IMG/VR virus record: IMGVR_UViG_3300020042_002824
Source: a virus
Lineage: Duplodnaviria > Heunggongvirae > Uroviricota > Caudoviricetes
Reading direction: 5' to 3' (one strand)
Length of the DNA: 15,827 bases
Shown here: positions 1,624-13,277 of the stretch, piece after piece
Position numbering within the stretch: the stretch's first letter is position 1
Layout of the letters: each line of letters begins with the position of its first letter
Made by a program: the position numbers and the translations under genes
Notes under the pieces: model-generated
Database searches by the model: none
What the model saw: the letters and a program-made list of their open reading frames with translations, nothing else
What the model was told of the DNA's origin: nothing

Positions 1624-2016
1624 ATGGCAAATCAAAGTAAATTAAAAGCATACGTACGATATGATGGTACAGGTAGAGTGATTAGTGGTAGTTTGATCTT
1701 ACAAAGATTCAAACCTGCTGTAGGTAATTGGGTGGAGATTGATGCTAGTGAATGTTGTAATTACGTTCCTACCACCACCACTACAACCACTGCTACTCCT
1801 ACTACTACCACAACTACTACTGTTCTTTCTGGATGTTTAGAGTATAATGTTGTAGTACCTGATGGTGGAAGTGGAACACTTAGTGGTGTTGATTGTGTTG
1901 GAAATCCTTTTGGACCAGTAACTCTTACAGGACCTGTTGATCAAAATTATTGTTTTGAGAGCATAAGTTCAACTGGAGACGTTACTATAACACTAGTAGG
2001 ACCTTGTAACCCATAA
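1624..2016 (+). CDS. Thr-rich (mucin-like) protein, paralog 2, with Cys-containing C-terminal domain (130 aa)
   Basis: Same 40-aa N-domain (27/40 identical to paralog 1 by hand alignment), then P-T7-ATP-T7-V, then a ~60-aa beta-rich domain with 4 Cys. Confidence 0.85.
   Translation: MANQSKLKAYVRYDGTGRVISGSLILQRFKPAVGNWVEIDASECCNYVPTTTTTTTATPTTTTTTTVLSGCLEYNVVVPDGGSGTLSGVDCVGNPFGPVTLTGPVDQNYCFESISSTGDVTITLVGPCNP
1768..1824 (+). repeat. Poly-Thr codon tract (ACN)n, two blocks
   Basis: Mixed ACC/ACT/ACA codons encoding P-T7-ATP-T7-V. Confidence 0.9.
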
Positions 2017-2032
2017 TAAAAATCAATATAGA

Positions 2033-2437
2033 ATGGCAAAATCATTATTCCCAGATGAGATGATAAGATCAGGGGAACTAAACTTGGAAACAATAGCTGG
2101 GAAGCTTACACATTTCCATGAGCAATTACACTTAACTCATTGGCAGACAAAGAGTTATGCTGAGCATCAAGCTCTAGGAGCATTGTACGATTATGTACAG
2201 GATTTCAAAGATGGTGTAATTGAAAAGCTTATGGGATATACAGGTAAAAGACCTGCTCCATACAAGATAGAACCTCTTACAAATTGTACAGGGGATGAAT
2301 GTGTGTCAAAACTTTTATCTTTTGCATCCTCTTTAAAAAGCTATGCTGAAGCAAACAGCTATCACGACATTGCAAATCTAGCAGATGCGTTGTCTGGTGA
2401 AGCTGCAAAAACTAAATACTTATTAACCTTGTCTTAA
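2033..2437 (+). CDS. Ferritin-like / Dps-like four-helix-bundle protein (DUF5856-like, 134 aa)
   Basis: HLTHWQTKSYAEHQALGALYD...DGVIEKLMG parallels the Dps HW...H...LY...D..AE pattern. The C-terminal helix DIANLADALSGEAAKTKYLL matches Dps helix 4. Confidence 0.7.
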   Translation: MAKSLFPDEMIRSGELNLETIAGKLTHFHEQLHLTHWQTKSYAEHQALGALYDYVQDFKDGVIEKLMGYTGKRPAPYKIEPLTNCTGDECVSKLLSFASSLKSYAEANSYHDIANLADALSGEAAKTKYLLTLS

Positions 2438-2727
2438 TGCAAATTAACAAGAAATTTTTCCCAGAGGTGATGCAAGATAACGAACTTGCTTATTTTGCTC
2501 ACCTCGAAGGAATTATTGCTTCAGTGGATGAACTCTCTATATTAGAGATAACTAAAAACCCCAACTCCTATCATTTTAGATTGGCTGCCTCTGTGCCCAA
2601 GTATAATGACATGTTACTTGAGGAACTATTGAAGTTCCATAACATGTTTCACATTAAGCTAGATCTTAGCAAAAGCATTAAAAGCTCTGCTACTATCACG
2701 TTTGAAATAAATTTGGAGAATTCATAA
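2437..2727 (+). CDS. Hypothetical protein (96 aa)
   Basis: ORF coupled to the upstream gene by a TAATG overlap. Confidence 0.75.
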   Translation: MQINKKFFPEVMQDNELAYFAHLEGIIASVDELSILEITKNPNSYHFRLAASVPKYNDMLLEELLKFHNMFHIKLDLSKSIKSSATITFEINLENS

Positions 2728-2743
2728 TAAATACATATCTTTG
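2712..2743 (+). promoter_or_regulatory. Bacteroidota primary-sigma promoter TTTG-N20-TATCTTTG
   Basis: tttg at 2712-2715, a 20-nt spacer, TATCTTTG at 2736-2743. Exact match to the established Bacteroides/Flavobacterium -33/-7 consensus, ~20 nt upstream of ATG 2765. Confidence 0.7.
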
Positions 2744-2764
2744 TATTTAAAAAAAATTACAACT

Positions 2765-3040
2765 ATGTCAGAAGAAATCAACCAAGTAGACGTGGCTAAT
2801 GAAGCCCCAAGTTATGACCCTAGTAAGAAATATACATGGTCAATGGAACATAACTTTACCATCTCTGGAGGAGAGTTTGGTGTAATATTAAATGCTTTAC
2901 GTGCTATTACAAATACACCAGAAGCACACGCTATCTTCTTAGCAGACAGAGCAGCAGGTGCTGTTGAATCTGTTCTAGCTAGAGGTGTAGAAGCAGGTAT
3001 TGTTAAAGAAGTTGAAGAATCTCCTAAAGGTACATTATAA
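2765..3040 (+). CDS. Hypothetical acidic protein (91 aa; ATG start MSEEINQ preferred over TTG 2741)
   Basis: The TTG at 2741 lies inside the -7 promoter box; ATG 2765 has an A-rich leader. Confidence 0.75.
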   Translation: MSEEINQVDVANEAPSYDPSKKYTWSMEHNFTISGGEFGVILNALRAITNTPEAHAIFLADRAAGAVESVLARGVEAGIVKEVEESPKGTL

Positions 3041-3189
3041 TGGCAAAAGAAATGATTAAACGCAAGGATGGTTCTGTTTCACAACGTGGTTTGTGGGATA
3101 ACATTCGTGCTGCTAAAGGATCTGGCAAGAAACCAACAGCTGCTATGCTAAAGCAAGAAAAGAAAATAAAAGCTAAAACTAAAAAATAA
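3040..3189 (+). CDS. Small basic protein (49 aa), missed by the ORF track
   Basis: MAKEMIKRKDGSVSQRGLWDNIRAAKGSGKKPTAAMLKQEKKIKAKTKK. TAATG overlaps at both ends; 16 K/R versus 4 D/E. Confidence 0.8.
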   Translation: MAKEMIKRKDGSVSQRGLWDNIRAAKGSGKKPTAAMLKQEKKIKAKTKK

Positions 3190-3545
3190 TGGCAAAGATT
3201 AAAAAAGCTGCTATGGGTAGCATGTCAGGATTGAAAGCTTCTGATAAGCGTGTAGGTCCTGTAGATCCACTAGGTGCTTGGACTAAAGTTCAAGAGAATA
3301 CATTAGCAGATGCTAGAATGACTCCTAAGTTAAAGAAAGATAAAGAACTTGGTGCCACCAAAATGGAAGGTGGTGGTAAGGTGGGACGTTCTGAGAAGTC
3401 TTATGGCTTGGACAAGAAAACACCTGCATACAAAGACATCAACCCTGGAAGTTTCAGAAAAGCTGCTTTAAAGCGTGAATCTGAATTAATAGAAAAACGC
3501 AGTGGTGAAATGGCTCCTAAGTTAAAATCTTCTAAAAAGAAATAA
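3189..3545 (+). CDS. Lys-rich basic protein, putative DNA-binding/core protein (118 aa)
   Basis: Starts MAKIKKAAMG, has internal KMEGGG, ends KKK. Confidence 0.75.
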   Translation: MAKIKKAAMGSMSGLKASDKRVGPVDPLGAWTKVQENTLADARMTPKLKKDKELGATKMEGGGKVGRSEKSYGLDKKTPAYKDINPGSFRKAALKRESELIEKRSGEMAPKLKSSKKK

Positions 3546-3546
3546 C

Positions 3547-3918
3547 ATGGCAACTATTAAGAAAGCACAAACTGGTGCTGGAGTTCCTAAAGGAATGGTT
3601 CGTGGTGAAATGACAGGCAAGCTTATTAAGAAGTCTGTTCAAGACAAACGAGATATTGACATGGCTGATGCTTTAGATAAGCAAGCTGGTAAGGGCAAGT
3701 ATGCTCCTAAACCTAAAGGTCTAAACTTTGATAAGAAAAGTTTTGATAAACTACCTGCGTTAAAGACCAAAGCTAAAGATGGTAAATGGATTCAAAAGGC
3801 TGTTAATCCAGCCCATAAAGGATATTGTACACCAATGACCAAAGCTACATGTACTCCTAAGCGTAAAGCTTTAGCTAAGACATTTAAAGCAATGGGCAGA
3901 GCTAGAAAAGGTAAATAA
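3547..3918 (+). CDS. Lys-rich basic protein, putative DNA-binding/core protein (123 aa)
   Basis: Starts MATIKKAQTG. C-terminal module KAKDG-KWIQKAVNPAHKGYC...C...KALAKTFK. Confidence 0.75.
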   Translation: MATIKKAQTGAGVPKGMVRGEMTGKLIKKSVQDKRDIDMADALDKQAGKGKYAPKPKGLNFDKKSFDKLPALKTKAKDGKWIQKAVNPAHKGYCTPMTKATCTPKRKALAKTFKAMGRARKGK

Positions 3919-3919
3919 C

Positions 3920-4564
3920 ATGGCTAGAATTCCTAAAACAAAAGTTTATAACCCACAGAAGGCAGAAGCCTATGTAGGTAAAGGGGTTCTCAGAAATGGA
4001 GACACCATTACAGCTATTAAAGGTGCTATAACACCTGTTCCTAATGGCCACCTTATAAAGAAAGATGGTACATCATTAAAGAATGGTAGTAAGATTGTTA
4101 AAGCTGGTGGTCAAACACATAAAGTGTTTAAGAAGAAAGTTGATAAAGGTATAGGTGATAAAGGGGATATAGTTGTAGATCATACAGCTGGTCCTTCTGC
4201 TGGTAAATGGGATAAGATTAACCTTACTAAGAAATCTAAAGCTAAGACTGTTAAACAAGGTGTTGCTTCTGTAAAGAAGTGGCATAGAGAAAATCCTATG
4301 ATGAAGAATGGTGGATCTACACCAGCTTGGCAACGTAAAGAGGGTAAAAGTTCTACAGGTGGTTTAAACGCTAAAGGTAGAGCTTCTTATAACAGAGCTA
4401 ACCCAGGTAAACCAGGTCTTAAAGCTCCTCAACCTGAAGGAGGTTCTCGCAAGAAATCATTCTGTGCTAGAATGTCAGGGATGAAAAAGAAACTCACAAG
4501 TGCTAAGACAGCAAATGATCCTAATAGTAGAATCAATAAGTCTTTGCGTAAATGGAAATGCTAA
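3920..4564 (+). CDS. Modular basic protein with C-terminal DUF6321-like module (214 aa)
   Basis: Modules separated by LRNGD/LKNGS/VKAGG/MKNGG. The C-terminal STPAWQRKEGK...GGLNAKGRASYN...RKKSFCARMSG...SRINKSLRKWKC matches a recurrent phage family (recalled as DUF6321). Confidence 0.7.
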   Translation: MARIPKTKVYNPQKAEAYVGKGVLRNGDTITAIKGAITPVPNGHLIKKDGTSLKNGSKIVKAGGQTHKVFKKKVDKGIGDKGDIVVDHTAGPSAGKWDKINLTKKSKAKTVKQGVASVKKWHRENPMMKNGGSTPAWQRKEGKSSTGGLNAKGRASYNRANPGKPGLKAPQPEGGSRKKSFCARMSGMKKKLTSAKTANDPNSRINKSLRKWKC

Positions 4565-4585
4565 ATTTAAAATAAAATAATCAAA

Positions 4586-5209
4586 ATGGCAAAGATGAAA
4601 AAATACCAAGGTGGTGGAAATGTAGATCCTAGGGTGGCTGCGTTCTTAAAGAAAAGAGCTGCTTCAGACACTACTAAAATGTACAACAGAGGTGAAATGT
4701 TAGAAACCATTAATGCAATAACTGCAGGTAAGATTAAACCTCGTGTAGATAAACCTATGGCTTCTGGTCAAGGCACTAAGAAATATGCTACAGTTAATAA
4801 AGGTGATACCACTTATATGAGCAAAGGAGATTTTGAAAAGAAATATGCACAGAAGAAAGCTGGTGGTAAAATTAAGAAAGCTAAATCTGGTGGTTCTTTT
4901 CCTGACTTAAACAAAGATGGTAAGATTACACAAGCTGACATCCTTAAAGGACGTGGTGTTATTAAAAATGGTGCTGCTCTTAAAAAACAAGCTGCAATAG
5001 CAATTGCTATGAAGAAAGCTGGTAAAACACCTAAGAAGATGATGAAATCTGGTGGTACATTATCTGCTCCTAAGAAAGATGGTTTATCTATGGAATTAGG
5101 TACTTACACAAGACAAATTGGTAAAAACTACACTGGTAAAAATGTTGTTAACAAAGGTGCTAAGGCTAAAATGGGTAAGTCTGTAGGTAAATGTAAATAT
5201 GGCTGTTAA
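4586..5209 (+). CDS. Modular basic protein with EF-hand-like loop (207 aa)
   Basis: Starts MAKMKKYQGGG, with repeated KKAGG/AKSGG/IKNGA/MKSGG/AKMGK and a DLNKDGKITQAD loop. Confidence 0.75.
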   Translation: MAKMKKYQGGGNVDPRVAAFLKKRAASDTTKMYNRGEMLETINAITAGKIKPRVDKPMASGQGTKKYATVNKGDTTYMSKGDFEKKYAQKKAGGKIKKAKSGGSFPDLNKDGKITQADILKGRGVIKNGAALKKQAAIAIAMKKAGKTPKKMMKSGGTLSAPKKDGLSMELGTYTRQIGKNYTGKNVVNKGAKAKMGKSVGKCKYGC

Positions 5210-5220
5210 AACCAACAATT

Positions 5221-5499
5221 ATGGCAAAGATAAAAAAAGCACAGTCTGCAATGGTTGATCAAGACAGACAATGGAAGGTGAATTCAGCAATGGATACACT
5301 TCTTCGCTACAATGAGTTATTAGCTGATAAAGCTTTAATGGCTGATGTACAAAAGAAAGCTCAAGATCAATTAAGCACTGTTACTAATACTCTTAAAATG
5401 GGCGGTAAGGTAACTAAAAAGGCTGTTTCTAAAAAACCTATGGCTAAGAAAGCTATGGTTAAGAAAATAGCTAAAAAAGTTGTAGCTAAAAAGAAATAA
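5221..5499 (+). CDS. Basic protein with histone H1-like C-terminal tail (92 aa)
   Basis: Starts MAKIKKAQS. After LKMGG comes KVTKKAVSKKPMAKKAMVKKIAKKVVAKKK (14 K in 30 aa, no acidic residue). Confidence 0.75.
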   Translation: MAKIKKAQSAMVDQDRQWKVNSAMDTLLRYNELLADKALMADVQKKAQDQLSTVTNTLKMGGKVTKKAVSKKPMAKKAMVKKIAKKVVAKKK

Positions 5500-5705
5500 T
5501 GAAATCAACTAAAGTAACTAGTAAACAAGCAAAGTCAGTAAAGCCAATGACTGCAGGTAAAGCTAAAGGATCAGGTACACCAAGACCTGCACCTAAGGTG
5601 GCTCCTCCTAAACCAGTCAATGGTAATTATATGAAGGAAGCTGATACACCTCTTAGATTGAAAAGTAAAATGTGGCCTCTTAAACAAAAGAGGTTATCAA
5701 AATAA
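5499..5705 (+). CDS. Small Lys/Pro-rich basic protein (68 aa)
   Basis: TAATG coupling to the upstream gene; K/P-rich composition. Confidence 0.7.
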   Translation: MKSTKVTSKQAKSVKPMTAGKAKGSGTPRPAPKVAPPKPVNGNYMKEADTPLRLKSKMWPLKQKRLSK

Positions 5706-5814
5706 CTGTCTTCTCCTGCATCCCTCGCTCTGCACGCTCAGGTTGTGGTAACTCAGTCTAGAATGAGCCCCTTAAAGAAGAATTTCCCCCCTATAGTCTC
5801 AGTATTATAGGTCT

Positions 5815-5848
5815 AAAAAAGCCTCCCTTAAAAAAGGAGGCTTTTTTT
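5815..5848. terminator. Bidirectional intrinsic terminator between convergent gene blocks
   Basis: AAAAAA-GCCTCC-cttaaaaaa-GGAGGC-TTTTTTT: GC stem flanked by A and T tracts. Confidence 0.85.
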
Positions 5849-6383
5849 ATGATACTAATGAATTGTATACAGATAGTATCTTGTTTATGTAATGTTTATT
5901 CTTTGCTTTTTTATAACAGTTCTCAGCAAATACACCATCAGCATCTCTCCTTGATAGAACAAATCTTTCTTGATTCACTATAGATGTATGTACAATGAAG
6001 TTATGGCTATCTACATAGCTTAACTTAATTATGTTTCCATACAATCTATGTACACCACTGTTCCACAGTTGATCAAATGATATAAAATCATTGTTTAAGT
6101 CTTTGATATTGTCCCACAACTCTGGATGCATAGTTGTATCATCATCGTTGAAATATATCCAACCCTCTGTTACTAGATTAATTGCTAGGTTTCTTTGTGC
6201 ATTTCCACATACGCTTTTTACATCCTTTATACAATAAGCTTCACATTCAGGAATATCAGTTGGAATAGTCTCTGAATCAAACACAACAATCCATCTGTAA
6301 TTTTCTTTAGGTATGTTAATGCTTTCTGCAATTCTATGTAAAAAATGAGGTCTACTACAAGGAGTGATAATATTTAAGAACAT
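5847..6383 (-). CDS. GT2-like (GT-A) glycosyltransferase (178 aa)
   Basis: IITPCSRP, GNAQRNLAI, YFNDDDT (DxD) and ADGVF motifs. Confidence 0.8.
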   Translation of the reverse strand: MFLNIITPCSRPHFLHRIAESINIPKENYRWIVVFDSETIPTDIPECEAYCIKDVKSVCGNAQRNLAINLVTEGWIYFNDDDTTMHPELWDNIKDLNNDFISFDQLWNSGVHRLYGNIIKLSYVDSHNFIVHTSIVNQERFVLSRRDADGVFAENCYKKAKNKHYINKILSVYNSLVS

Positions 6384-7027
6384 GGTTTGTCATTTCTATG
6401 TAAAACTAAAAGCTTATCGTTGTCCCAACCTGGAGAAAACTTTAACTCATGATTAGCCATAATAAATGTAGCAGATGAGAAGTATTCTTTAATGTGATCC
6501 ATGGCTTCCATGTATCTGTTTTCATCTTCTCTAAGGAAGATATCTTCGATGATGATTATACCTCCTGGCTTAACACATTTGTATGCTATGTTTAAAAATC
6601 TAATCTGATCTTCAAACACGTGTGTAGAATCTTCTATGATTATGTCAAAGAAGTTATTTTTGTTGAACACGTTGTTAAGAGATTGTTCACTGGTAACATC
6701 TATATGAGTGTATGTAGCATTGTTAAGATTATCACGTATTCCTTTTTGCAACTTATCATCATGATATTCATAACCAAACAATGTTGCATTAGGGAAATAT
6801 TCTCTCCAACATAACATAGAATGATTATCTAATATACCCACCTCACCTATTGTAATCTCTTTGTAACGAAGATTTGAAAACAATAAGTTATATATGGAAG
6901 TGTAAGCATGTCTATGTAAATGAGGATGGTTATGATAAGGACACTTGTCTGTAGGATACTTAACAGCAAGTTTACATAAGTCTGTATTAGAATGTGTAGA
7001 GTCAATACTTAGTCTATTTATTTGCAT
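6374..7027 (-). CDS. Class I SAM-dependent methyltransferase, MycE/sugar O-methyltransferase-like (217 aa)
   Basis: YPTDK..H.YT.IY, IGEVGI, CWREYFPNA, FDIIIEDSTH and VKPGGIIIIED motifs. Confidence 0.8.
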   Translation of the reverse strand: MQINRLSIDSTHSNTDLCKLAVKYPTDKCPYHNHPHLHRHAYTSIYNLLFSNLRYKEITIGEVGILDNHSMLCWREYFPNATLFGYEYHDDKLQKGIRDNLNNATYTHIDVTSEQSLNNVFNKNNFFDIIIEDSTHVFEDQIRFLNIAYKCVKPGGIIIIEDIFLREDENRYMEAMDHIKEYFSSATFIMANHELKFSPGWDNDKLLVLHRNDKPCS

Positions 7028-7769
7028 TGATAAAATCTTTTAACATTTGTGAATAGTCTTTACTCCAATGAGGAACTAGTTTAACTTCTCCTGTAGGAAC
7101 TTTTCCTTTGATTCTTTCTGATTCAATGTGAGCACTGTGTCTTTGTATAGCGTTAAGCTTTCCAGGATGGTCTGTACCCTCACCACTCATGTGATAACCC
7201 CTACCACCCCACATATAAAACCAACTAGCTTCTTCCTTAGGAGGTTTAGCAAATAGTCTTCCTCCATATGCGTTTATTGCTTCAATGAATGTCATATCAT
7301 ATCCAGCATTTTCAAGAGGATGTCCTCCTATAGCTTTCCAAGCTGACTTTCTAAAAACAATACCAGAGTTACCTATCCAACCAACTTGTTCAATACCTGT
7401 AATGTGACATAACACTCCTGTTTCCCAGTGAAGAATGTTCACCTTATCAGTCATGTATTTAGCTACATTCTTTAAATGGTGTGGTAGAGCTACATCATCA
7501 TCATCCCATTGGCATATAATATCTCCTTGACAACGCTCTGTAGCATAGTTTTCTTTCGCTCCTATAGTATCATATCCCTTAACTAGGTTAACTATCTTAA
7601 CTTGAGGATGATCAAATACAAGAGTTTGTAAAGGATAGTCATTAACTATTATAAGCTCACACTTATCTGCAGGATAGTCCTGCTTGAGGAAAGACTCAAT
7701 ACTCTCCTCAAGCGTAGCTACCCTTCCATAAGTTATACATTTACATGATATAAATGGAAGTGAGTTCAT
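7014..7769 (-). CDS. GT2 family glycosyltransferase (251 aa)
   Basis: ITYGR...LEESIESFLKQDY, ELIIVND, IGAKENY and GDIICQWDDDD motifs. Confidence 0.85.
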   Translation of the reverse strand: MNSLPFISCKCITYGRVATLEESIESFLKQDYPADKCELIIVNDYPLQTLVFDHPQVKIVNLVKGYDTIGAKENYATERCQGDIICQWDDDDVALPHHLKNVAKYMTDKVNILHWETGVLCHITGIEQVGWIGNSGIVFRKSAWKAIGGHPLENAGYDMTFIEAINAYGGRLFAKPPKEEASWFYMWGGRGYHMSGEGTDHPGKLNAIQRHSAHIESERIKGKVPTGEVKLVPHWSKDYSQMLKDFINANK

Positions 7770-7770
7770 A

Positions 7771-8052
7771 TTACCAAATCATTATAACATCAAATGGACT
7801 AACAAGAATTACTTCCTCATCATTTGATAGGTTAATTAATGGAGCTTTTGATAAAGAGCTTGGATCTACCAAGATGATATCTCCTGCTTTGATACTTGTT
7901 ACCAAATCACCAACTGTGTGCACCTTTAACTTAGACATCTTCTTAAGCATCTCTTTTTGTAATGCTTCTTTAGTGTTCTCGTCTACAATTAACTTGCTGT
8001 CTTCATTTTGTTTTGGCATCTCTACATAGATGCGGTTACCTAATAGCTTCAT
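7771..8052 (-). CDS. GroES-like co-chaperonin (93 aa)
   Basis: KLLGNRIYVE, VHTVGD..TSIKAGDIILV and ILVSPFDVIMIW follow the Cpn10 beta-barrel pattern. Confidence 0.7.
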   Translation of the reverse strand: MKLLGNRIYVEMPKQNEDSKLIVDENTKEALQKEMLKKMSKLKVHTVGDLVTSIKAGDIILVDPSSLSKAPLINLSNDEEVILVSPFDVIMIW

Positions 8053-11339: not shown

Positions 11340-13277
11340 TTAAATGTTTATTTCACATCCTTCAGGACCGCTACAAGCTGCAATAGCACCAAAGTCCACT
11401 GTATCATCTAATTCCATCACCTTAGTTAGGTCAATGGCTTTCAATGAATTGATACGACTGTTGTAATCCTCTTCTGTGATGTCTTCAAAAGGAGCTTGTT
11501 TGTAACTGCCTCCAAAATATGGTAGTACTGACAAGCCATTGTATATTTCTCTATTGTCCCACATCCATTGTCCTACAGCTTGCCACTCATTCAAGAAACC
11601 ATCATCAGTTTGTGTGTATCTACTACCTTTACCATCACTCATGTCAACTGATATATAGTTTCTACCATTATCAATAGAAACAGTAGCACTTACATTATGT
11701 GTGTTAGCTCCATTAATATGTCCTGCTTTGACCCATTCTGTAGAGAATCTTTTAACACGCTCTAGCGTATCAATTGCTGTCTCTGTACGTAGAATAGATC
11801 CTTCAGGGGCTTTAACAGGAATGCGTACACAAACTGTATCCTTAGGACGTAACACATCATCTTCACATAGTTCAGGATGGTTAATCTCTAAGTACATAGC
11901 CATATCTTCGCTCTTGTTAAACCTCATAGTTCTTAAGTAGTAAGGAGCATGCCATGCGTGGATACCAGATGCTGTTCCTAAGACTAATGATGTTGTACCA
12001 CTTGGTTTAATACATGTAATACGAGCTGCTTCGTTGGTACCAATCTTATCAGAAATCATACTGTTAACCACCTTAGCTGTATTGGCTGCTATTTCCAGGT
12101 CATATTTAAGGATTTCTCCTGAACCTATACCTGTCATACCAATGCCTAATAGAGCGTCTTTTTGGGTGGTCTTTTGCCAAATAGGACGTAAGTAGTGGAA
12201 GTCAAAGAATCCTGCTTGTAATGTACCAAAGAATGCTGCAACACTCACTCTGTTGTTAAGGTCTTCCTGATCTACTACATCAGACACATTCACCTCACAT
12301 AGGTTACAGAATTGAAAAGGTCTTAGACCAATTTCACAGCAAGGGTTAGTTCCCCAATCTAGGTCATTAGACCAATAGATACCTGGTTCACCACTTCCTG
12401 ATGCTTCAATTCTTTTCCATAGGGCTTGGAACTCTTCTTCACTCACCTCACCTCTTTTAAGGACAGCTGAGTTATTACTTCTACCACGTTGTTCATTAGT
12501 CTCCCACCAGTCACCATACTTACATGTAATCATTTCCTCGTCATCATGGCTAAACAAAGAGATCATAGCTGACCTTCTGATACCACCTGCAAGTACACTG
12601 TTAGCAATATGACACATAATATCATGAGCTTCTAAAGGAGATAGCTTTTGACCATCTTCTTTACGTTCCATAACAGCATCAATATGAGATAAGCATAACT
12701 TAAGTGGTTCAGGACCAGGAGCTTTACCTCCAGCTGTCACTAATCTAGCACCCTTGTGTCTAATAGCTCTGAAGTCAAACTTAGGCTTATAACCACCTTC
12801 AAAGTAGAACTTCATCAAAACTTTTACAGCATCAGCCCATCCCATAATAGAATCTTCAATCAGGTAGTTACGTTGCTTGTATGTCTCTTGTTTCTTAATA
12901 GCTGGCAGTTGCTCTATATGATGCTTTTGAACAGAAAAACCTACACCTGAACCTCCTAATAGGAGAAACATAGTCTCAGAGAAACTGTATAGACTGTCAA
13001 CAGGTAGATAAGCACAGTTATATCCTCTAGCATTGTTCACTTCCATTGCTGGACCAGCAAACTGAAGGGCCCTCATTGATGGTAAGACTTTCTTCTCTCT
13101 AATGAATACAGCACTTTCTACAATTGCTTGCTCTAATTTAGGATATTTCTTGATCATCATGCTTTGATACCTATCCACTATCTCATCCCAAGTCTCTCTT
13201 CTTTTCTTTTCTGAGATGTACTTTGCATACTTGCTAAAAATTGTTATTTTGCTCAAAGCTTCTAATCCTAAATCCAT
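11340..13277 (-). CDS. nrdJ: Class II (adenosylcobalamin-dependent) ribonucleotide reductase, monomeric RTPR type (645 aa from MDLGLE)
   Basis: PSMRALQFAG, YNCAY, GTNPCCEI (NPCxE active site), FCNLCEV, TCIKPSGTTS and a C-terminal Cys pair ACSGPEGC. The frame is uninterrupted. Confidence 0.93.
   Translation of the reverse strand: MDLGLEALSKITIFSKYAKYISEKKRRETWDEIVDRYQSMMIKKYPKLEQAIVESAVFIREKKVLPSMRALQFAGPAMEVNNARGYNCAYLPVDSLYSFSETMFLLLGGSGVGFSVQKHHIEQLPAIKKQETYKQRNYLIEDSIMGWADAVKVLMKFYFEGGYKPKFDFRAIRHKGARLVTAGGKAPGPEPLKLCLSHIDAVMERKEDGQKLSPLEAHDIMCHIANSVLAGGIRRSAMISLFSHDDEEMITCKYGDWWETNEQRGRSNNSAVLKRGEVSEEEFQALWKRIEASGSGEPGIYWSNDLDWGTNPCCEIGLRPFQFCNLCEVNVSDVVDQEDLNNRVSVAAFFGTLQAGFFDFHYLRPIWQKTTQKDALLGIGMTGIGSGEILKYDLEIAANTAKVVNSMISDKIGTNEAARITCIKPSGTTSLVLGTASGIHAWHAPYYLRTMRFNKSEDMAMYLEINHPELCEDDVLRPKDTVCVRIPVKAPEGSILRTETAIDTLERVKRFSTEWVKAGHINGANTHNVSATVSIDNGRNYISVDMSDGKGSRYTQTDDGFLNEWQAVGQWMWDNREIYNGLSVLPYFGGSYKQAPFEDITEEDYNSRINSLKAIDLTKVMELDDTVDFGAIAACSGPEGCEINI

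Follow-up and report, generated by a model that had tools for sequence, protein, structure and literature searches.

A mosaic cassette of seven lysine-rich genes with a recurring K-x-G-G element in a predicted crAss-like phage from aquatic metagenomes

The lysine-rich cassette and its genomic setting

The viral sequence IMGVR_UViG_3300020042_002824 (15,827 nt, analysed over its whole length and called the window from here on) contains at positions 3040–5705 a cassette of seven plus-strand genes, encoding proteins of 49–214 amino acids (aa), which forms the end of a late operon. A first-pass annotation made from the sequence alone had described these genes as seven consecutive lysine-rich open reading frames (ORFs) encoding protamine/histone-like proteins, and had proposed that they are polyproteins of short peptides, targeted to the phage head by a shared N-terminus and cut there at di-glycine sites by a phage maturation protease. 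All seven ORFs were recovered with these boundaries and on this strand, with lysine making up 19–27% and lysine plus arginine 23–33% of the proteins, and with net charges of +12 to +38 (Table 1). Five of the six intergenic junctions are coupled or near-abutting (ATAATG overlaps at two junctions, a 1-nt spacer, TAAC ATG, at both genes 2/3 and genes 3/4, and an 11-nt spacer at genes 5/6), and genes 4 and 5 are spaced by 21 nt.

The cassette consists of real genes, because every comparable segment is under purifying selection when set against the 92%-identical relative G001 (ratio of nonsynonymous to synonymous substitution rates, dN/dS, of 0.07–0.20), because gene 5 has 1,480 relatives at E ≤ 1e-3, all of them unnamed, and because gene 4 matches the Pfam domain DUF6321. 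Genes 1 and 7 are kept in all four relatives G001, G002, G003 and G004, with a dN/dS of 0.12 for gene 1 (vs G001) and 0.15 for gene 7, which closes the late operon and converges on a minus-strand replication block starting at 5847. For gene 2 the dN/dS is 0.17, and the G001 ortholog has MKNGG at the place of KMEGGG. The slot of gene 6 is variable, as in both G001 and G002 it is taken by another gene, of 50 aa.

Six of the seven proteins belong to no Pfam or PHROGs family, and none of the seven matched a histone, protamine or HU/IHF-type family in Pfam at E ≤ 1, so that the term protamine/histone-like is supported by their composition only. The AlphaFold 2 model of gene 5 has a mean predicted local distance difference test score (pLDDT) of 54, with short helices only and disorder elsewhere, and in the model of gene 4 only residues 132–214 are folded (helical, pLDDT 70–86), which is the DUF6321 part. 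Fold searches with the gene 4 model gave a best E of 9.8 (Foldseek against PDB) and a best Z of 2.4 (VIA-align), and profile searches of the PDB with alignments of genes 4 and 5 returned chance-level matches only, none of them relevant, although fold tests say little about proteins that are mostly disordered. Further elements of gene 5 are a DUF6496-like helix and, C-terminally, GKCKYGC. A canonical EF-hand/dockerin-type calcium loop sits within this lysine-rich, disordered protein (Table 1) and is replaced in some relatives by an alternative module, FGMLSVKAGIDKNPNPT; residues 89–120 score 16.5 bits against dockerin type I (PF00404), below the cut-off of 22.9 and with a single loop. One gene 5 homolog, the 134-aa protein P0077 from a 1.3-kb contig, carries a typical signal peptide where the others have their first module, and could be either a real secreted variant or an assembly chimera.

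The wider setting was read from G004, a complete 111-kb relative with direct terminal repeats, which encodes crAss ring proteins 2 and 3/4, a crAss-type portal, TerL, a major capsid protein (MCP) and a homolog of the crAss001 gp44 muzzle protein (blastp 1.4e-7). By the gene content of its relatives, the source of the window is assigned to the crAss-like phages of Bacteroidota. The late operon of G004 runs from TerL through the portal, MCP, ring and tail proteins and muzzle to three proteins of 476, 1,065 and 857 aa, followed by three giant proteins, glycan and lysis genes and, as the last element, the lysine-rich cassette, which adjoins a convergent replication block; the window shows the same operon end. 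Freshwater lakes are the main source of metagenomes with this DNA, and nearly all others are from rivers or associated with crustaceans, not from the gut, even though the phage is crAss-like.

In its codon usage the cassette of the window leans the same way as the capsid gene, toward GGT, GCT, CGT, TCT and CCT, and in G004 two cassette genes rank third and fourth of 83 on a capsid-type codon index, behind MCP. Together with the position in the operon, this points to abundant expression of the cassette genes late in infection. Contigs from RNA libraries of four freshwater and river studies overlap parts of the cassette, and were not used as evidence of expression, as they show neither level nor strand and may stem from DNA carry-over.

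Among the neighbouring genes, a DUF5856 protein is encoded at 2033–2437, just upstream of the cassette (assigned through the precomputed annotation of a metagenome contig with an identical gene 5 product), and a 93-aa minus-strand gene at 7771–8052 appears GroES-like by eye. In G001 a 200-aa gene resembling GIY-YIG-type homing endonucleases (L006:9985-10587) is inserted so as to part two genes which are direct neighbours in the window (~2727–2741). Relatives also carry a further mini-gene of 41–42 aa, starting MAKAKGG and with 36–39% lysine plus arginine, ~4.7 kb upstream of the cassette, at a place outside the window (Table 1).

Table 1. Positions of the cassette genes, their modules and related features; window coordinates unless a genome or locus is given
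Feature	Position	Strand	Description
Gene 1	3040-3189	+	49 aa, net charge +12; single conserved module GLWDNIRA...GSGKKPT, no GG junction
Gene 2	3189-3545	+	118 aa; leader MAKIKKAAMG; internal junction KMEGGG at 3363-3380
Gene 3	3547-3918	+	123 aa; leader MATIKKAQTG; C-terminal unit is the two-Cys module GYCTPMTKATCTP...
Gene 4	3920-4564	+	214 aa; junction-type motifs LRNGD, LKNGS, VKAGG, MKNGG; C-terminal DUF6321
75-codon module in gene 4	4096-4320	+	Present in the window, missing in G001
DUF6321 domain of gene 4	4313-4561	+	Residues ~132-214; Pfam PF19846
Gene 5	4586-5209	+	207 aa; leader MAKMKKYQGGG
Gene 5 junction KKAGG	4853-4867	+	
Gene 5 junction AKSGG	4880-4894	+	
Gene 5 junction MKSGG	5042-5056	+	
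EF-hand/dockerin-like loop of gene 5	~4895-4957	+	Residues 104-124; DLNKDGKITQAD
Gene 6	5221-5499	+	92 aa; leader MAKIKKAQSA; junction LKMGG at 5392-5406; K/A-rich tail
Gene 7	5499-5705	+	68 aa; K/P-rich, no leader, no GG junction
Two large proteins, G004	48328-51525 and 51544-52974 (L076:8328-11525, 11544-12974)	-	Motif-rich
Orthologs of the large proteins, G002	46720-49506, 49527-51959		
Orthologs of the large proteins, G003	46267-49740		
MAKAKGG... mini-gene	L006:6164-6292; G004 16881-17006; G002 7310-7438		
(E/S)(F/Y)S(N)WRDD joints	L008:1724-4294, L092:2461-3276, L097:1676-2740, L100:2663-4216		In DUF6321 proteins of T4-like cyanophages

The junction element as a seam of module and gene shuffling

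The four N-termini (MAKIKKAAMG, MATIKKAQTG, MAKMKKYQGG and MAKIKKAQSA) and twelve internal motifs (KMEGGG, AKDGK, LRNGD, LKNGS, VKAGG, MKNGG, KKAGG, AKSGG, IKNGA, MKSGG, AKMGK and LKMGG) which had been picked out by the first-pass annotation are all present, and the leader MA(K/T)(I/M)KK(A/Y)(A/Q), with which four of the seven genes start, also dominates 120 homologs. When compared with 5,000 within-protein shuffles of the cassette proteins, the loose motif of that annotation was observed 17 times vs 7.2 ± 2.5 expected (p ~0.001), while the stricter forms [MLIV][KR]xG[GSAD] (7 observed vs 1.2 expected) and [VLIMA][KR]xGG (5 observed vs 0.65 expected) are at levels never reached in the shuffles, with p-values that are indicative only, the motif definitions being post hoc. 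The junction motif is thus 5–6 times as common as shuffles of matched composition would give. Bare GG is not enriched in the same shuffles (12 observed vs 9.4 expected), and therefore the signal lies in the context around GG rather than in glycine content. Within the window the strict motif is found in the cassette and in one other place, as VKPGG in a methyltransferase-like gene.

From 416 junctions the consensus is K-K-[M/Y/A]-[K/Q]-x-G-G, followed by variable residues, and in the alignment of the gene 5 family the junction region K91–G103 is the most conserved part. Nearly all relatives of gene 5 begin with a copy of this junction, MAK(I/M/V)KK(A/Y)Q.G(G), so the shared N-terminus is real and the leader is itself a copy of the junction element. 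Once the shared linkers are trimmed and the remaining modules clustered, the gene 5 relatives are seen to recombine ~20 short modules in a preferred order, with a variable first module, an EF-hand-like module, an optional DUF6496-like helix and a GKCKxGC tail.

The breakpoints of this mosaic fall at the junctions. A junction is found no more than 6 aa away from 45% of the 904 internal homology breakpoints, vs 28 ± 2% of random positions, and the lack of enrichment within 3 aa (16% vs 16%) is due to the alignments running through the shared linker. The same is seen at the DNA level between the window and G001, two genomes of 92% identity that are separated by module indels, gene fusion and gene replacement. 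The 75-codon module of gene 4 is flanked, in the DNA alignment with G001, by two copies of the repeat AAGAATGGT, which codes for the motif, at 4079–4087 and 4304–4312, and because of this repeat the edges of the module are ambiguous by ~12 nt; a metatranscriptome contig shows a second deletion variant of gene 4, in which LRNG is joined to G-STPAW (joint 3994>4309), although this is weak and has a short flank. Gene 3 is a natural fusion of two units which are separate ORFs of 103 and 52 aa in G001, by a 59-nt deletion that takes the stop codon, spacer, start codon and leader of the second gene, beginning just after a K-x-G triplet and ending with the leader of the downstream gene.

It is clear from these comparisons that the junction is, at the DNA level, the seam for exchange, fusion and fission of modules and of entire genes. 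The proposal of polyproteins of short peptides is borne out in so far as the proteins are modular and the motif marks the module boundaries, in indels, in fusion and fission and in the breakpoints, while the preferred order of the modules shows that the proteins are not simple strings of equivalent peptides. At the protein level, the junction would act as a shared recognition signal, either a packaging or targeting tag or a processing site. Searches with genes 1, 3 and 5 (tblastn) against 50,697 cultured-phage records and with window positions 2000–7000 (megablast) gave no match, and therefore no cultured phage carries the cassette, only DUF6321 being held in common.

DUF6321 domains in virion-associated contexts

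Residues 142–212 of gene 4 match DUF6321 (PF19846) with 66.4 bits, vs a cut-off of 28.5 (E 3.6e-18), and across gene 4 and 54 relatives (55 sequences) the domain has 44 invariant columns. DUF6321 is confined to viruses, has more than 5,000 longer relatives in which it is fused to other modules, and returned only clusters named 'DUF6321' in an Atlas search; a full-text search of ~8.4 million texts found no paper with the family name. The family corresponds to the cyanomyovirus gene cluster T4-GC119, which is also its label in GenBank, with members such as S-SCSM1 ORF29, P-SSM2 PSSM2_123 and P-SSM4 PSSM4_160, and gene 4 genuinely belongs to it through its C-terminal 83 residues. The name T4-GC119 turned up once in the literature, with Sullivan et al. 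2010 (PMC3037559) listing it as hypothetical within a cassette that may be mobile.

The domain of gene 4 shares up to 82% identity with that of marine cyanomyoviruses, cyanopodoviruses and pelagiphages. Against the marine T4-like cyanophages the identity is 70–82% (records compared: KJ019141, NC_006883, NC_006884, KX349237, MK867354) despite unrelated core genes, which implies recent horizontal spread of the module. While the window uses K-x-G-G, the cyanomyovirus DUF6321 proteins are 270–860 aa long, contain other modules (DUF5872-type) and have SWRDD...xE junctions. In T4-like cyanophages these module joints take the form (E/S)(F/Y)S(N)WRDD (Table 1), with a hydrophobic-x-E a few residues later, which looks like a site for a gp21-type capsid protease.

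The domain is shared with a virion protein. ORF29 of S-SCSM1 ends in DUF6321, with 70% identity to gene 4 over 80 aa (E 3e-31), and is labelled 'virion protein' in GenBank; mass spectrometry of CsCl-purified S-SCSM1 particles detected 45 phage proteins (PMC9602691). The genes for DUF6321 proteins also lie among structural genes: between MCP and the tail-tube gene gp11 in a T7-like cyanophage, among gp15, gp16 and gp17 in T4-like cyanophages, and, in 66-kb podoviruses, last among the genes of the structural block. In one protein DUF6321 is joined to ART-PolyVal, a domain which belongs to packaged polyvalent proteins.

A second possible link to the virion came from the motif itself. All genes of G002, G003 and G004 were scanned for [MLIVFYW][KRQAE]xGG against shuffles, and enrichment at p ≤ 0.002 was found only in one cassette gene (of G002) and in two large adjacent proteins, for which the G004 counts were 7 vs 0.8 and 5 vs 0.6 expected. 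The first-pass annotation had suggested testing for enrichment in structural or internal proteins only. Weaker enrichment was seen in a G004 cassette gene (p = 0.008) and in two other G003 genes (p = 0.013–0.015). Conserved hydrophobic-x-x-G-G sites occur in the large proteins together with a repeated GGW(L/V)NK(Y/F) element, which is also found at the very C-terminus of the 476-aa protein, and one of them has GGWLNKYQGGG, close to the gene 5 leader MAKMKKYQGGG. Their genes lie between the muzzle homolog and the giant genes, and the equivalent position in crAss001 is occupied by the cargo proteins gp45 and gp46 (PMC10172136). An Atlas lead of high score, which named the cargo-slot protein as crAss cargo protein 1, was not confirmed by a hidden Markov model search.

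Proposed packaging of the basic proteins and rival roles

Our preferred reading, which we hold with roughly even confidence, is that the cassette is a hyperplastic set of abundant, late, lysine-rich and largely disordered proteins which are packaged with the DNA in the capsid. The proteins would be strings of short modules (~15–75 aa, some with a Cys pair and one being DUF6321), parted by K-K-[M/Y/A]-[K/Q]-x-G-G and mostly opened by a copy of it, MAKIKKAQxGG, and their positive charge could hold the packaged DNA electrostatically. At infection they probably leave the capsid, and their disorder (with gene 5 modelled with short helices only and DUF6321 alone folded in gene 4) would suit passage through the tail channel. 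A virion-internal location, as put forward in the first-pass annotation, is made plausible by the DUF6321 domain of the S-SCSM1 virion protein, by the motif in cargo position and by the capsid-like codons.

By analogy, the closest counterpart is the T-even internal protein (IP) locus with its capsid-targeting leader, in logic and not in sequence, and the cassette may do for an aquatic crAss-like phage of Bacteroidota what the internal proteins do for T4. The T4 internal proteins have an N-terminal capsid-targeting sequence and are processed by gp21. IPI, IPII and IPIII are tandem small basic proteins with a common N-terminal leader of ~10 residues, and in the T-even IP locus, too, closely related phages differ strongly in gene content, the seam being the conserved leader region; packaging with DNA followed by ejection would be a likeness in role. 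The two systems differ in that there is no sequence similarity, that the cassette leader ends in G-G vs (L/I)-x-E in T4, that the leader element recurs between modules in the cassette, and that a gp21-type protease was not found in the complete relative. Within the same viral order, the cargo proteins C1 (gp45) and C2 (gp46) of crAss001 are a second point of comparison, as the proteins at the equivalent position in the relatives of the window have the motif of the cassette. The cassette itself, however, closes the late operon, well away from the muzzle gene, and its proteins are much smaller and far more basic.

Several points weigh against this reading. No virion has yielded a cassette protein, the sole link by experiment being one shared domain in an unrelated phage family, and the S-SCSM1 paper does not state which ORF29 peptides were seen (PMC9602691). 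In the passages of the cryo-electron microscopy paper on the T7-like cyanophage P-SCSP1u that a term search brings up, portal gp16, MCP gp19, adaptor gp22, nozzle gp23 and fibre gp28 are modelled, no decoration protein is reported, and the products encoded between MCP and adaptor do not appear (PMC10575957). By our estimate the seven genes, with ~+159 net charge per set, could neutralise only a few percent of a 106-kb genome within a cargo space like that reported for crAss001. PDB searches gave no fold or sequence match that would indicate DNA binding by DUF6321. That the two large proteins rich in the motif are cargo is plausible from gene order only: they have no match in Pfam, PHROG or cultured phages, and none to crAss001 gp45 or gp46 by BLAST; a six-frame search of G002, G003 and G004, including their cassettes, found no crAss_CARG1 (PF25725) at E ≤ 1; and gp45 and gp46 (PMC10172136) are not themselves enriched in the motif.

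The main rival, to which we give a rather low probability, is that the proteins are not packaged but are abundant late nucleic-acid binders inside the cell, which compact or protect replicated DNA or bind RNA, with the junction as a flexible lysine-rich hinge contacting the DNA. Their extreme basic charge, their disorder and their high-expression codon usage would suit such a role as well. Phages of Bacteroidota, of cyanobacteria and of SAR11, whose capsids are unrelated, have DUF6321 domains of ~80% identity, which speaks for a universal ligand, nucleic acid for example, and against a contact specific to the capsid, and the silence on the products between MCP and adaptor in the P-SCSP1u passages also counts on this side. 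Set against this, a DUF6321 protein was found in purified S-SCSM1 virions, DUF6321 genes are consistently located in head, neck or packaging blocks, the motif is common to proteins in the cargo-gene position, and a simple hinge leaves the conserved N-terminal leader unexplained.

The full mechanism of the first-pass annotation, in which the proteins are polyproteins and a GG-specific protease (of the phage and unrecognised, or of the host) removes the leader and cuts every junction, is a minority reading of the same rather low probability. Cutting after G-G would then release many small basic peptides in the head, in the manner of adenovirus, African swine fever virus (ASFV) and polyubiquitin. 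In the junctions the specificity lies with the non-prime residues, [M/Y/A]-[K/Q]-x-G-G, and what follows them varies, as would suit a cleavage site; a copy precedes every first module too, which a mere linker would not need; and since a given module can be a gene of its own with a leader or part of a larger gene after a junction, cutting would give the same product from both. In nearly all of the 110 junctions listed for 120 fused DUF6321 proteins, the domain follows right after [FYML][KA][EKQ]GG(ST), and an N-terminal DUF6321 starts directly, as MAK-TPAW. T4-like cyanophages carry gp21-type prohead proteases, which are Glu-specific, and all five homologs from T4-like cyanomyoviruses have Glu before DUF6321 (NE|GAAW, ME|GVAAW, SE|AAAW, SE|GAAW), although this pattern rests on five sequences, with a hydrophobic residue at P3 in three of them.

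The protease that this mechanism calls for did not turn up: no prohead, clan CE or other maturation protease was recognisable in the complete relative or in four partial ones, with PF02902 (Peptidase_C48, clan CE; E ≤ 0.1) and the HK97-type S78 family (PF04586) both missing from all five contigs, although these scans left out proteins below 110 aa and the full genome of the window itself, and a very divergent enzyme could escape them. Pfam scans of ~70 proteins of G004 (35 late, 28 early and 3 giant proteins) likewise contained no Peptidase_S77, S78, C5, C48 or C57, the sole peptidase family being the self-cleaving Peptidase_S74 at the end of a 2,550-aa fibre, and the crAss001 structure paper makes no mention of a protease, cleavage or processing (PMC10172136).

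The sites also do not follow the adenovirus consensus invoked by the first-pass annotation, (M/I/L)XGG|X, or the alternative form (M/I/L)XGX|G, since the former needs a hydrophobic residue at P4 and most of the 416 junctions have it at P5; in the window only KMEGGG fits MxGG|x, AKDGK, LRNGD, IKNGA and AKMGK lack the second Gly, and the leaders end in x-G-G or x-G and not in the (L/I)-x-E of a gp21-type prohead protease. With adenovirus pVII, pX (mu) and pTP (cut by adenain, clan CE) and with ASFV pp220 and pp62 (cut by pS273R at GG|X), the cassette shares basic DNA-associated proteins or polyproteins, virion proteins in those viruses, and a hydrophobic residue before Gly-Gly, but those are eukaryotic viruses without homology to the phage, a clan CE protease was not detectable here, and cleavage in the phage is hypothetical.

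In its widest form, which we put forward tentatively and at low probability, the hydrophobic-K-x-G-G element would be a capsid-cargo code shared by many aquatic phages, serving both as incorporation tag and as a site for such a GG-specific protease. The cassette and the cargo-slot polyproteins might then yield a variable cocktail of basic peptides and mini-domains, packed and injected with the DNA, and the modules of T4-like cyanophages might have exchanged the junction for Glu sites of their own gp21 protease, both of which we likewise think improbable.

Roles outside the cytoplasm, either as cationic lysis helpers that disrupt the outer membrane (as phiKT disruptin does) or as surface or adhesive proteins docked to a cohesin-domain protein through the gene 5 loop, are very unlikely, since the GH19 endolysin ~4 kb upstream in the same operon is parted from the cassette by glycosyltransferase, poly-Thr and DUF5856 genes, since the weak Dockerin_1 match of the loop D-x-N-x-D-G-x-I-x-x-x-D is a single half-repeat below cut-off despite a cohesin-domain protein in the late block of G004, since the signal peptide of P0077 is one sequence on a short contig vs none of the seven proteins with a signal peptide or amphipathic membrane helix, and since seven genes with 871 codons are far beyond the needs of any known lysis accessory.

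The gene 5 family, with over 1,400 relatives, and the fused forms of DUF6321, over 5,000 in number, are abundant in aquatic phages and are all annotated as 'hypothetical', and the cassette is a clear example of a short repeated coding element serving as the seam for shuffling of both modules and genes. If GG processing proved true, tailed phages would use polyprotein processing of the adenovirus and ASFV type. If the proteins are packaged, they would add a charge-rich and fast-evolving protein load to the 'cargo' concept of crAss-type phages, and would be natural candidates for factors which protect DNA ends or counter host defence upon delivery at infection.

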